From a virus (lineage: Duplodnaviria > Heunggongvirae > Uroviricota > Caudoviricetes): DNA of 44,739 nucleotides. Shown in pieces: positions 4,324 to 9,965 of this stretch. Under the pieces are notes generated by a model. The model was not told the origin of the DNA. It saw nothing but the letters and a program-made list of their open reading frames with translations, and made no database searches. Every line of letters begins with the position of its first letter. The stretch's first letter is position 1. The translations under genes and the position numbers were made by a program. Location of the stretch: IMG/VR virus record IMGVR_UViG_647533158_000005; one strand, written 5' to 3'.

Positions 4324-4897
4324 CATTATCGCGTCCTCAACAATGAATTTTGTGATGCAGTGCCTGGTGCCTCCAGGTGACGTTAACCAGTTAACAATTA
4401 ACGCCGGAATACATAAGAGGATACTTACGCCAGTAAAAGACCTCTTTACTGATTTAACTGTTCCGCGTGCGCATAGCCGCATTCACCGCATCACAAAATT
4501 CACTTTAAAAAGGGCGGCAGAGCAGTCACGGAGTAAAACTGATACCGCCAAATGTCACCAGAAAATTGATAACAGAGGGCGTTGCAGCGGGGTTGTCACT
4601 TAAGCGTATGGTCAACCTGACAACCCGGTGTCCTCAACGGGGAAGGAATAACCCCGCCATACTTACCGCCGCGCCATTTCGCGGAGTGCCGCAACCGGAA
4701 GCGCACGGTCGACGAAAATTTAACGACAGGCTATCTATGAACCAGCTACCTCGCCGTGCGCTTTCGCGTTATGGTCTGACTTTTCAGGGAAATATCCTTT
4801 CAGTAAACTGTCAGTGCCGGATGCTCACCCGTGTCCGGCGCACGCACTCCACCTCACCCGTGGAGAACTCCTTAATCACCAACCCTCAGGAGGGTGA

Positions 4898-5120
4898 AAT
4901 GGCTAGTAAAAATGTAAATATCCAGTTTAACCACGATGTTTCTCCTGCTGGACTTGCGGATGAACTCAGGGCTATAAAAACGGCAATTATGCTACTTGCT
5001 GCTAAGTTGCCAGCAGCATCACAACCATCAGATATTTGTGACTCATTACGTAAGATGAATTCAACAAAATGCAACGAGATGGCATCACTTATTGAAATAG
5101 CTATTGATTTTAATGATTAA
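4898..5120 (+). CDS. Hypothetical small protein (73 aa)
   Basis: ATG at 4898 preceded by GGAGGG Shine-Dalgarno (inside the longer 4566..5120 ORF whose 5' part looks non-coding); 3' end converges on the 5110..5502 ORF. Confidence 0.35.
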
Positions 5121-5502
5121 TTGATATTTCATTTTCATGCCTAACTGTAAAACAAGCATCCGAAGTGCAATACTTTAAATCACCAGAATTAATGGTGCAC
5201 TCAGTAAAATGGTTCTTAAGGGGTTCTATTCGAATCCCTTTATTTTTCATCAACAAACCAAGCCCCTTATTAATTATATCCATTAACTCCAAAAAGTATT
5301 TGTCAGGTGAGTCTTGGTTATCAGAGCTCTGCTTATCTTCGTACAGCCCGATAAAGGCTCGGCGCACGTTACCGGATATATTATCGATGGTTTCTTTTTC
5401 TACGGTACTCAGGTCAAGAGTCGCCAGTTGAGAACGAACTATATTCGATGCCATTTCCTGGAATGGTACTGGTAAATCTTTAAATTCCATCGTCAACCTC
5501 AT
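5110..5502 (-). CDS. Hypothetical protein (130 aa), low-GC accessory gene
   Basis: ORF with TGATG stop/start overlap to the upstream 76-aa ORF (translational coupling); about 38% GC versus about 50% for the phage backbone; no recognisable domain. Confidence 0.45.
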   Translation of the reverse strand: MRLTMEFKDLPVPFQEMASNIVRSQLATLDLSTVEKETIDNISGNVRRAFIGLYEDKQSSDNQDSPDKYFLELMDIINKGLGLLMKNKGIRIEPLKNHFTECTINSGDLKYCTSDACFTVRHENEISINH

Positions 5503-5732
5503 CAGTCAGTGTTTCTGGCTAACCAGCGACGCGCGCCAGATTCGGTTTTAAACGTTTTACTTTTGGTATACGTCATCGTAGTGAACGTACCGTCATGGTT
5601 GGGAAACACGCCGCACACCAGAGAATCGTTGTTGCTAAGATCGATAGTATCCATGCTGACCTCATTTCCCCTTAACGCCGGGGTAGCGGAACAAAAACCT
5701 GCTGCATAGTTAAAGTTGAACCCTGCCGTCAT
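5502..5732 (-). CDS. Hypothetical small protein (76 aa, or 50 aa from internal start at 5654)
   Basis: First gene leftward of the oL-like operator region; both candidate starts have GAGG Shine-Dalgarno; basic C-terminus. Confidence 0.35.
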   Translation of the reverse strand: MTAGFNFNYAAGFCSATPALRGNEVSMDTIDLSNNDSLVCGVFPNHDGTFTTMTYTKSKTFKTESGARRWLARNTD

Positions 5733-5836
5733 GTTCTTACGCCTCGGGCTGGCTACTTAACCCCTGACCACTGCCTGGTAACTCGAAGTATTGCCCTGCG
5801 TTCTGTGGGGCGGGGTGGGTTGGTATGAAAAGAAGG

Positions 5837-5874
5837 ATACCCATGGGTATTTAAAAAGTAAATACCTGTGGGTA
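5837..5874. promoter_or_regulatory. Putative leftward operator/promoter region (oL-like): two TACC-N4-GGTA palindromes
   Basis: atacccatgggtat (5837-5850, perfect palindrome) and tacctgtgggta (5863-5874), in the intergenic region 3' of the repressor gene. Confidence 0.45.
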
Positions 5875-5917
5875 ATTTTTTTGCGGTGTCTTAACTGGTG
5901 ACTGGTTGTTTGGTGAG

Positions 5918-6337
5918 CTATGATGCGTTTTGTGCTTTCTTTTTACGGATTTCTTCGTAGATCATATTGTAATACTGTTTTTTCTCTTCAAGAGTTTTTA
6001 ATAAGTTATCCGCTTCACTTTCTGGCAGTTCGTCTAAGAGATCTAAAAAAATACGTTGTCGTGGCGTTAGAACCCTTGTTTCATAACTGGAGGCTGTGTT
6101 CGTTGATGATGAAACGATACCATCCATCCATCCCCGGGGTAACCCAAAGGACTCTTCGATAATCTCCACCATATCATCAGCGATCCGTTTTTTTCCCTTT
6201 TTCCCCTCTGGGTACAACATTCTTGATACATAAGAAGGCTCGCGCCCGATCTTTCTGGCCACGTTAACCGCTTTACCATCGCATTTCTCATCACGAATTT
6301 TGATGAGTTGCTGTCGTCTAAATTCATATTTGTCCAT
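5918..6337 (-). CDS. Prophage repressor (short HTH repressor, RacR-like, no peptidase domain)
   Basis: 139-aa ORF divergent from a Cro-like gene across a 100-bp region containing three operator-like palindromes; N-terminal HTH-like segment (KAVNVARKIGREPSYVSRML). Confidence 0.65.
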   Translation of the reverse strand: MDKYEFRRQQLIKIRDEKCDGKAVNVARKIGREPSYVSRMLYPEGKKGKKRIADDMVEIIEESFGLPRGWMDGIVSSSTNTASSYETRVLTPRQRIFLDLLDELPESEADNLLKTLEEKKQYYNMIYEEIRKKKAQNAS

Positions 6338-6357
6338 AGGTAAATAATAGATGCAAT

Positions 6358-6408
6358 TACCGCAAGGTAAACAACCTGTGGGTATTGACTTTTGTTTACC
6401 TGCAGGTA
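6358..6408. promoter_or_regulatory. Putative oR-like tripartite operator with divergent promoters
   Basis: taccgcaaggta (6358-6369), acctgtgggta (6374-6384), tacctgcaggta (6397-6408, perfect palindrome); TTGACT -35-like hexamer at 6385-6390 overlapping the operators. Confidence 0.5.
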
Positions 6409-6437
6409 TTCTTTGCTGTGTTTACTAAGGAGTAGCT

Positions 6438-6719
6438 ATGGAAGAATTAAGAATATTTCTCAATTCTCTTTCGTCAGATGAACAGCGTATGTTTGCATAC
6501 GAGTGTGGTACCAGCATCGGTTATCTAAGAAAGGCATTGAGTAAAGGTCAAGTGCTAGGGGCATCGTTATGTGTCCTTATTGAGCGAGCCAGTACTGGTG
6601 AAGTTACACGTCAGCAACTAAGGCCTTTTGATTGGATGAATATTTGGCCCGAGCTGGAAGATACCAAAACGTTAACACAACCATTTTCTAGGAGCTTGAT
6701 TCATGAAAATCAAGCATGA
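6438..6719 (+). CDS. Cro/YdaS-like small transcriptional regulator
   Basis: 93-aa ORF divergent from repressor; HTH-like segment (ECGTSIGYLRKALSKGQ); strong AGGAG Shine-Dalgarno; gene order as RacR-YdaS-YdaT. Confidence 0.65.
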   Translation: MEELRIFLNSLSSDEQRMFAYECGTSIGYLRKALSKGQVLGASLCVLIERASTGEVTRQQLRPFDWMNIWPELEDTKTLTQPFSRSLIHENQA

Positions 6720-9319: not shown

Positions 9320-9922
9320 TCAGGATACTTTTTCATGTACTGTCATGATAAATACCAGCGGGCTTTCTCCCTGATTTTCATAGAAATGAGGGACGTCTGT
9401 TCTGGCTGTTGCTGAACAGCCTGTTTTTACCAAATACTCGTGCTCCTGTATGCCCAGTGTGAGCGTACCCGATTGAACAAAAAACAGTTCAAGCGTTCCT
9501 TCCGTGTGGCCGGGGGAAGCAAATTTTTCCCCGGGCTGCATTTCCCACATCCAGAGCTCGGTCATATCAGGGCCACCGGAACCTGCGAGCAATCTTGCTT
9601 TCCCGCCTTTTTCACCTTCCCACAATTCAGGGATCTCACTTTCTGTAATGAGATGCACGGTCGGTTTGGAACTGACATCCACAAAATCAGCTACCGAAAC
9701 TCCCATCGCGGCAGCCAGGCGGCATAACATGGTAATGCTGGGATTCGCCCGGCATCCCTCTATCTCAACCAGCGCTCCCTTGCTGACGCCTGCTCGACGG
9801 GAGAGTTCATCAAGGGATATTTTCTTTTGCTTACGATAAAGTTTAATTCGCTGAGATACGGCTTCATTCACAGTGCTGACGATAGAATTTACATCGGTCA
9901 TTAAATTGACTTTTTTGGTCAT
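9320..9922 (-). CDS. XRE-family HTH transcriptional regulator with C-terminal cupin domain
   Basis: 200-aa ORF; N-terminal HTH (ISLDELSRRAGVSKGALVEIE) and C-terminal cupin-like beta-barrel region; divergent from B3/4-domain gene. Confidence 0.7.
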   Translation of the reverse strand: MTKKVNLMTDVNSIVSTVNEAVSQRIKLYRKQKKISLDELSRRAGVSKGALVEIEGCRANPSITMLCRLAAAMGVSVADFVDVSSKPTVHLITESEIPELWEGEKGGKARLLAGSGGPDMTELWMWEMQPGEKFASPGHTEGTLELFFVQSGTLTLGIQEHEYLVKTGCSATARTDVPHFYENQGESPLVFIMTVHEKVS

Positions 9923-9965
9923 TGGTCATTATCATGGAATAAATTAGTCATTATAGGATTGTCAC

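Follow-up and report, generated by a model that had tools for sequence, protein, structure and literature searches.

Five TACC-N4-GGTA sites around a short repressor gene as putative operators of a lambda-type immunity switch in a mosaic prophage

The IMG/VR virus record IMGVR_UViG_647533158_000005, a stretch of 44,739 bp that is called the window here, carries five short palindromic sites of the form TACC-N4-GGTA on both sides of a gene for a 139-aa repressor. Judged from the sequence, these sites are very probably the operators of a lambda-type immunity switch, putatively bound by the 139-aa repressor and by a Cro-like protein encoded divergently from it. By its gene content, the surrounding region is where a lambdoid prophage of the Qin/Rac style keeps its immunity functions. 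The lambdoid architecture itself is textbook, a well-supported but ordinary feature. The operator consensus and its wide spread with interchangeable C-terminal repressor modules appear not to have been described previously.

The whole window was searched for exact matches to TACCNNNNGGTA, and four were found, while 0.36 were expected (the mean of 100 dinucleotide-preserving shuffles, of which 0 reached four). All four exact sites were confined to 571 bp. A fifth site, AACCTGTGGGTA at 6373, was recovered in a one-mismatch search and deviates at its first base; 14 further one-mismatch matches were dispersed across the window, outside the cluster. The original prediction had placed five sites with this core at 5837-6408. 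The coordinates were correct, as were the two perfect palindromes among the sites (5838 and 6397); the core is present in full at four sites, and the one at 6373 qualifies only if one mismatch is allowed. The proposed split into three sites between the divergent repressor and cro-like genes and two on the other side of the repressor gene was confirmed as well. The repressor ATG (6337, minus strand) is separated by a gap of 100 bp from the cro-like ATG (6438), and this gap contains the sites at 6358, 6373 and 6397 (named OR3, OR2 and OR1). The sites at 5838 and 5863 (OL1 and OL2, the left pair) lie 44-80 bp beyond the repressor stop codon (5918) and are spaced 25 bp. The coordinates of all features are listed in Table 1.

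Table 1. Operator-like sites, predicted promoters, genes and other features in and around the immunity region of the window.
Feature	Coordinates	Strand	Sequence or elements	Basis or position
OL1	5838..5849		TACCCATGGGTA, perfect 12-bp palindrome	Exact match; within the predicted leftward PL, between its -35 and -10
OL2	5863..5874		TACCTGTGGGTA	Exact match; immediately upstream of the predicted PL -35
OR3	6358..6369		TACCGCAAGGTA	Exact match; overlaps the predicted PRM -35 and spacer
OR2	6373..6384		AACCTGTGGGTA	One mismatch; half-site on the repressor-gene side imperfect; abuts the predicted PR -35
OR1	6397..6408		TACCTGCAGGTA, perfect 12-bp palindrome	Exact match; between the predicted PR -35 and -10
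Predicted PR	6385..6412	+	-35 TTGACT 6385-6390, 16-nt spacer, -10 TATTCT 6407-6412, predicted +1 ~6419	Scan, 9/12
Predicted PRM	6344..6371	-	-35 TTTACC 6371-6366, 16-nt spacer, -10 TATTAT 6349-6344	Scan, 9/12
Predicted PL, dicBp analogue	5834..5862	-	-35 TTTACT 5862-5857, 17-nt spacer, -10 TATCCT 5839-5834, +1 ~5827	Read from the sequence
Repressor gene, 139 aa	5918..6337	-		Open reading frame; phrog_5736 'transcriptional regulator'
Repressor DNA-binding domain	6113-6337	-	Residues 1-75; a disordered linker (residues 76-88) follows	
Repressor DicA-like helical hairpin (predicted)	5921-6073	-	Residues 89-139	
Shine-Dalgarno before the cro-like gene	6427-6432	+	AAGGAG	
cro-like gene, 93 aa	6438..6719	+	YdaS/HTH family	Open reading frame, family matches
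YdaT-type CII analogue, 141 aa	6703..7128	+		Pfam PF06254 above cut-off; phrog_163; overlaps the cro-like gene; replication genes follow
Inverted repeat TTGATT-N6-AATCAA	6696..6713		TTGATTCATGAAAATCAA	End of the cro-like gene/start of ydaT; only exact match in the window
RNA hairpin from OL2 and OL1	5838..5874	-	Hairpin, then UCCUUCUUUUCA	Terminator-like match; possible terminator of the repressor transcript
Start of early-left operon, predicted PL target	4512..5654	-	ydfA-like DUF1391 gene 5502-5654, two small open reading frames, DicF small RNA	
DicF small RNA	4512-4563	-		Rfam, 77 bits; downstream of the ydfA-like gene

Promoters were predicted by a consensus hexamer scan of positions 5700-6500, scored out of 12 positions. 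The scan gave just two promoter-like matches, one per strand and back to back, the predicted PR and PRM. OR1 occupies the PR spacer and overlaps the PR -10, and OR2 ends one base before the PR -35. Counted from the predicted PRM start, the centres of OR3, OR2 and OR1 lie at -26.5, -41.5 and -65.5, respectively, which gives spacings of 24 bp between OR1 and OR2 and of 15 bp between OR2 and OR3, centre to centre. In lambda, OR2 and OR1 lie at about -42 and -66 from the PRM start, and CI activates PRM from OR2. On the minus strand, the left pair was read in the order OL2, TTTACT, 7 nt, OL1 and TATCCT, with the last hexamer overlapping the end of OL1, and this is a PR-like geometry. The PRM -10 ends 7 nt before the repressor ATG and a Shine-Dalgarno sequence is absent there, a geometry that is kept in most related loci. 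Since these two features occur together, the repressor mRNA is predicted to be leaderless, with the A of the ATG at 6337 as its predicted +1. Experiments have established leaderless repressor mRNAs for lambda cI and, in CP-933P, for PaaR2 (PMC8630535).

The same arrangement was found in relatives. The cI protein of coliphage mEp043 was 65% identical to the window repressor over the DNA-binding domain. The cro-cI gap of this phage contained TACCTGTAGGTA, TACCCATAGGTT and TACCGGCAGGTA, spaced 25 and 15 bp, and its left pair, TACCTATAGGTA and TACCTGTAGGTA, was 25 bp apart and about 350 bp upstream of gene N. A single scan of species-representative genomes yielded 28 loci (142 kb) from Enterobacterales, Aeromonas, Burkholderiales, Xanthobacteraceae, Stenotrophomonas and others, in which 77 exact sites were counted against 2.2 expected. 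Of the 77 sites, 39 were upstream of the repressor, between -80 and -25 relative to its ATG, 32 formed downstream pairs spaced 24-26 bp, and 6 belonged to such pairs with a one-mismatch partner, while 0 of 77 fell outside the upstream offsets or downstream pairs. When the upstream regions were stacked, three conserved blocks were visible, TTTACC-N4-GGTAA, TCAATACC-N4-GGT(T/C) and ATTTACC-N4-GGTAA, and the information content of the alignment was high in the arms and low in the centres and spacers. In those relatives from which OR2 was recovered, its repressor-side half-site was imperfect too and read GGTT, GGTC or a weaker variant on the repressor strand. Most related loci keep TTGAC beside OR2 and also have a TAnnnT hexamer whose end lies 6-7 nt ahead of the ATG. 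The exact sites of the window, mEp043 and the related loci together numbered 81. The four central bases were YRYR in 50 of them and the base flanking the arms was mostly T or A, so that N4 is not free and the fuller consensus is tTACC-YRYR-GGTAa. Within E. coli, at least 822 of 5,426 complete genomes covered 80% or more of the segment 5700-6800, with about 98% identity in the best matches.

The left pair is probably an operator pair first. Equivalent pairs were present in 21 of the 28 genome loci, the order A-tract, OL2, -35, 7 nt, OL1 and -10 was conserved across loci, and the PL-equivalents of relatives had stronger hexamers (TTGACA/TATATT) in the same geometry. By its gene content, the early-left operon reads as dicBF-like, with the left pair in the place that dicBp takes in Qin. 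Because DicF and a ydfA-like gene are present in this operon, a repressible promoter would be needed at the position of the left pair. To the left of DicF, an exonuclease gene is followed by two open reading frames at the window end, which are placed like the excisionase and integrase genes in a related E. coli locus. The original prediction of a bipartite layout resembling oL and oR thus held, with three sites over PR and PRM and a pair at the predicted PL facing the ydfA/DicF operon.

The pair at 5838-5874 could instead be mainly an intrinsic and possibly bidirectional terminator that ends the repressor transcript, and not an operator pair. On the plus strand, a terminator scanner reported a stem of 16 pairs with a T-run behind it, and the RNA of OL2-OL1 on the repressor strand folded with -16.3 kcal/mol (z = -4.2), followed by the U-rich tail UCCUUCUUUUCA. 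The repressor stop lies 44 bp upstream and toxic genes of the dicBF type lie downstream, and the E. coli relative L001 has a perfect 16-bp stem of -21.4 kcal/mol with the same tail. However, any two near-palindromes that are 25 bp apart will fold: OR2-OR1 gave -17.5 kcal/mol, and the pairs of relatives gave -5 to -21 kcal/mol, mostly without U-rich tails. Moreover, the pair, its -35 and -10 hexamers and the A-tract are kept in loci where the pair is 0.1-1.9 kb away from the repressor gene, and in mEp043 the pair stands before gene N. A terminator in place of operators is therefore unlikely. A dual role that leaves the operator function intact is the most likely form of any termination at this pair. 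In this E. coli type, with its short loop, its U-rich tail and a repressor stop that is a mere 44 bp away on the upstream side, the operator pair might additionally terminate the repressor transcript ahead of the dicBF genes, which is a tentative suggestion.

The comparison with phage Tritos (L034) bore on the claim that the sites define the immunity specificity of the prophage. The C-terminal part of Tritos CI was 72% identical to the window repressor, and its N-terminal domain differs. On the ydfA side, Tritos DNA was nearly identical to the window over the whole aligned stretch, which begins downstream of the predicted PL start and reaches into the ydfA-like gene, and upstream of about 5820-5824 it has other palindromes (GTACT...AGTAC) in place of OL1 and OL2. 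At the sequence level the claim was borne out, since a heteroimmune phage shares the flank up to this point and then carries different palindromes. The mosaic joint at about 5820-5824 is sharp, with the predicted PL start a few bases away, and the operator side is unrelated to Tritos. This is the position that would be expected if the left pair is part of an immunity-specific cassette.

The repressor was confirmed to be short and without a peptidase, as had been proposed. No family was assigned to the 139-aa protein in the Pfam search, PF00717 (the S24 peptidase) was found only in its long relatives, and a sequence search of the PDB gave noise only (E >= 0.07). An AlphaFold2 model was built on 12 short homologues and had a mean pLDDT of 83. 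It showed an N-terminal domain with helices 3-18, 23-30, 34-40 and 54-63, in which 23-30 and 34-40 form the helix-turn-helix (HTH), a disordered linker (76-87) and a helical hairpin (92-103 and 106-138). Foldseek gave weak HTH matches to this model, the best being the SPC32H Rep-Ant complex 5d50 (E about 1e-3, TM 0.44-0.48). In BLASTP, the C-terminal part was 33% identical to DicA over 46 aa (E = 1e-7), and the NCBIfam DicA model NF007257 (model residues 81-131) matched repressor residues 86-136 with E = 2.8e-5, below the whole-protein cut-off. The alignment is limited to these C-terminal 46 residues, and the DNA-binding domains of the repressor and DicA do not align. Sequence matches and model agree in indicating that the C-terminal part is a DicA-like helical hairpin and not an S24 peptidase.

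The DNA-binding domain, in turn, was found on proteins of both kinds. Residues 1 to about 75 were 65-84% identical to the N-terminal domains of repressors of 221-242 aa with the S24 peptidase PF00717, whose hosts were Salmonella, Klebsiella, Pantoea, Edwardsiella, Citrobacter and others, and the same domain was present in other short proteins of about 137 aa. The domains of the S24-type proteins were as close to that of the window repressor as were those of the other short proteins, and therefore the C-terminal parts have been exchanged more than once. In the recognition helix, S35, Y36, V37, R39, M40, L41 and Y42 were invariant in 13 diverse relatives, while position 38 varies. In the divergent loci L018, L021, L027 and L030, TACT and AGTA arms occurred together with P34Q or a V/I change. 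Covariation of helix and arms was considered as evidence and set aside, since the helix is almost invariant and these four loci are too few to count.

The Cro-like protein matched the PDB Cro entries 8c7k and 8co2 (E = 3e-10) and had homologues encoded divergently from the repressor in 22 related loci, mEp043 among them; together with the window protein they formed one BLAST cluster of 23 sequences. This co-inheritance of Cro with the sites, together with the lack of a Pfam assignment for the repressor domain, would also fit sites that are read only by the Cro-like protein or by another factor, with the 139-aa protein acting at other sequences. Five Klebsiella loci (L004, L007, L008, L010 and L011; about 2420-2500) argue against this. 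They have an S24-type repressor of the same domain family, upstream sites like OR1 and OR3, and one site or a pair downstream; OR2 is missing, and a cro homologue was not found in them. A repressor with sites and no detected cro favours the repressor as the reader of the sites. In addition, the sites keep set positions with respect to the repressor ATG, recognition helix and arms are both invariant, and no other conserved repeat was present in the aligned intergenic regions. Sites read by Cro or another factor alone are thus highly improbable. The five Klebsiella loci may be a cro-less remnant or a satellite-like element; in their middle position another conserved block (TTTGCTATATTTT) was observed. 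Finally, clustering by chance or through the composition of AT-rich intergenic DNA, which might be considered because the motif is short (8 specified bases) and its one-mismatch versions are found through the window 19 times against 9 expected, can be dismissed, since no shuffle gave four exact matches and the 77 sites, against 2.2 expected, in unrelated genomes all stood at equal relative positions.

The operators of a lambda-type switch thus remain the preferred reading of the five sites. Several points weigh against it. The PL hexamers are weak, with 8 of 12 consensus positions, and were under the threshold of the scanner. OR2 and OR3 are 15 bp apart, compared with 23 bp in lambda, and occupancy rules may differ. 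The domain, cro and the sites are co-inherited, so that comparison alone cannot assign the sites to one protein, and cooperative binding would need higher oligomers of the short repressor. Literature on this operator motif was not found in openly searchable text, in which spellings of the motif and of three 12-mers matched unrelated primer sequences only, and the papers there that mention mEp043 contained no operator work; for the S24-type relatives, too, no study of operators was found there. With respect to induction, no Rem homologue was found in the window by tblastn, no antirepressor family was found among the 30 window open reading frames in PHROG and Pfam scans, and no credible LexA box was found in the window, where two CTGT-N8-ACAG matches had GC-rich centres and were within chance expectation.

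The switch would operate as follows; binding, cooperativity, activation, leaderless translation and the induction route are steps that we infer. Repressor dimers would bind tTACC-YRYR-GGTAa via the HTH at residues 23-40. Cooperative filling of OR1 and OR2 would shut PR, from which cro, ydaT and the replication genes would be transcribed, and cooperative filling of OL1 and OL2 would shut the leftward promoter of the early operon of the dicBF type. With its centre at -41.5, OR2 may activate PRM. OR3, inside the repressor promoter, would let the repressor limit its own synthesis, and the Cro-like protein would act there first. During establishment, YdaT bound to the site at 6696-6713 would drive repressor synthesis, as in CP-933P, and derepression would proceed via an antirepressor or via dilution of the repressor.

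The establishment step is suggested by the genes to the right. The YdaT of the window was near-identical to PDB 3c4r and closely related to 8bt1. In CP-933P, YdaT was footprinted on an inverted repeat that TTGATTCATGAAAATCAA matches at every base and in location (PMC9986795). The likeness of both site and protein points to a PRE-like, YdaT-activated route to repressor synthesis. Taken over the related loci, the mobile unit would comprise OL, the repressor domain, OR and cro together, with the CII analogue outside it, because mEp043 has a lambda-type cII where the window has ydaT.

Since a DicA-like hairpin takes the place of the S24 peptidase, induction by an antirepressor or by repressor dilution would be expected rather than RecA-stimulated self-cleavage, and it is probably brought about by an antirepressor. 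The antirepressor gene may lie beyond the window, which ends inside tail-fibre genes, or the antirepressor may act in trans as in the Gifsy phages. The open reading frame at 11620-11898 (92 aa, phrog_1212) was 88% identical to TRITO_42 of Tritos in the same position. Its neighbours are hok/sok on one side and the DUF968 and Q genes on the other, which is the place of rem in Qin, and Tritos shares the C-terminal part of the repressor. This open reading frame is a weak candidate for an antirepressor. The HTH protein at 9320-9922 is a cupin-type regulator of a cargo module and not an S24 repressor.

This cargo-like module (9320-11050) lies in the nin region and comprises the HTH and cupin regulator on the minus strand, a divergent B3/4-domain protein and a weak ABM-monooxygenase-like open reading frame; a role of the module for the phage is not obvious. 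It is followed by a hok/sok-type locus at 11127-11452, with an Rfam sok match of 116 bits and a MokW/Hok-like open reading frame. At 16329-16481 and 17112-17301, two adjacent tRNA genes and a match to the small RNA STnc100 were observed; a DNA methyltransferase gene precedes them, and the lysis and packaging region comes after. Positions 1-24000 of the window were not contiguous in any complete E. coli genome, and the best match, a marmot strain, had 63% coverage and 92% identity. From these alignments, the prophage appears to be a mosaic that is not represented as a whole in the collection of complete E. coli genomes, and given this mosaic nature, no single genome's annotation was borrowed outside the immunity segment.

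On a wider scale, it is possible, and we put it forward tentatively from the comparison of loci, that one operator specificity (tTACC-YRYR-GGTAa with the domain and Cro) extends across prophages of Gamma- and Betaproteobacteria and has repeatedly been joined to different induction modules, either several S24 types or a DicA-like hairpin, with SOS-resistant cross-immunity if the specificities are identical and with the left pair possibly doubling as a terminator that insulates dicBF. If the specificities are identical, a short non-cleavable repressor would give SOS-resistant immunity to S24-type phages with the same operators, such as mEp043, and a co-resident S24-type prophage of the mEp043 group would be kept silent during DNA damage. 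This would be cross-talk at the level of the repressor rather than of the antirepressor. The analysis provides a testable operator consensus and a promoter map for an immunity type whose domain reaches many other genera, and it locates the point at which a cell-division-inhibitor operon of the dicBF type is controlled. Nature also supplies a comparison here, since one set of domain, operators and Cro is combined with either RecA-dependent self-cleavage or a DicA-type domain; this is useful for studying the swapping of induction modules and for predicting cross-immunity between prophages. The general picture of temperate-phage regulation is unchanged.

Of the known systems, Rac shares the gene order with the window, a related YdaT (33% identity to K-12 YdaT, E = 1e-15) and a weakly related YdaS. 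RacR, in contrast, is not similar to the window repressor (no alignment better than E = 2.3). No TACC-N4-GGTA was present in 4 kb around racR, and the racR intergenic region had none even with 2 mismatches and showed TTAGGC-type repeats instead. The Qin immunity region of K-12 also has no TACC-N4-GGTA site. Comparison with Rac-type operators had been suggested originally, and this likeness did not hold beyond YdaT and, weakly, YdaS; the Rac comparison was rejected because RacR does not align and because these sites are absent from the Rac and Qin immunity regions.

The Gifsy repressors GfoR and GtgR and the SPC32H Rep, which antirepressors inactivate, are, like the window repressor, short and not cleaved, with an HTH and a helical C-terminal part. 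The fold match to SPC32H was weak, and a significant sequence match of these proteins to the window repressor was not found. DicA has been placed in the class of the Gifsy repressors (Lemire 2011, PMC3121763). DicA itself, also short and non-cleavable, is counteracted by Rem, a small antirepressor, and dicBp is known from the same system (bioRxiv 10.1101/2023.04.14.536235). DicA and Qin share with the window a short repressor of about 135 aa, homologous C-terminal helices and a downstream operon with a ydfA-like gene and DicF, but the DNA-binding domains are not alignable and the sites of the window are absent from Qin.

CP-933P has an intergenic region of about 100 bp, a leaderless short repressor, a YdaS-type Cro, a closely related YdaT and the identical TTGATT-N6-AATCAA at the same place. 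Its repressor PaaR2 is leaderless and binds the intergenic region, which is experimentally supported (Jurenas 2021, PMC8630535), and its YdaT operator was footprinted at the ydaS-ydaT junction (Prolic-Kalinsek 2023, PMC9986795). The operators of CP-933P, however, are 18-bp repeats with the half-site GTTTAGTAA (PMC8630535), compared with TACC-N4-GGTA in the window. The N-terminus given for PaaR2 is MQKKE (PMC8630535), compared with MDKYE in the window repressor, and a toxin-antitoxin pair follows the PaaR2 repressor.

Lambda shares with the window a repressor gene and a cro gene that diverge, back-to-back promoters covered by three palindromic operators of which the middle one is intrinsically weaker, a second operator cluster at the leftward early promoter and the leaderless repressor mRNA, which is predicted for the window. 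OR1 and OR2 have about the same positions relative to the start of the repressor promoter (about -66 and -42 in lambda). The window differs from lambda in an unrelated DNA-binding domain and operator sequence, in two left operators instead of three, in an OR2-OR3 spacing of 15 bp instead of 23, in an OL-OR distance of only about 535 bp, in the absence of an S24 peptidase and in YdaT as the CII analogue.

The closest relatives are the repressors of mEp043 and of S24-type prophages of Salmonella, Klebsiella, Pantoea and Edwardsiella, which have a domain 65-84% identical to that of the window repressor, TACC-N4-GGTA sites in the same 3 + 2 layout and spacing, and a homologous Cro. They differ in the S24 (LexA-like) peptidase at the C-terminus and in their length of 221-242 aa, and mEp043 carries a lambda-type cII and N in place of ydaT and the dicBF operon.

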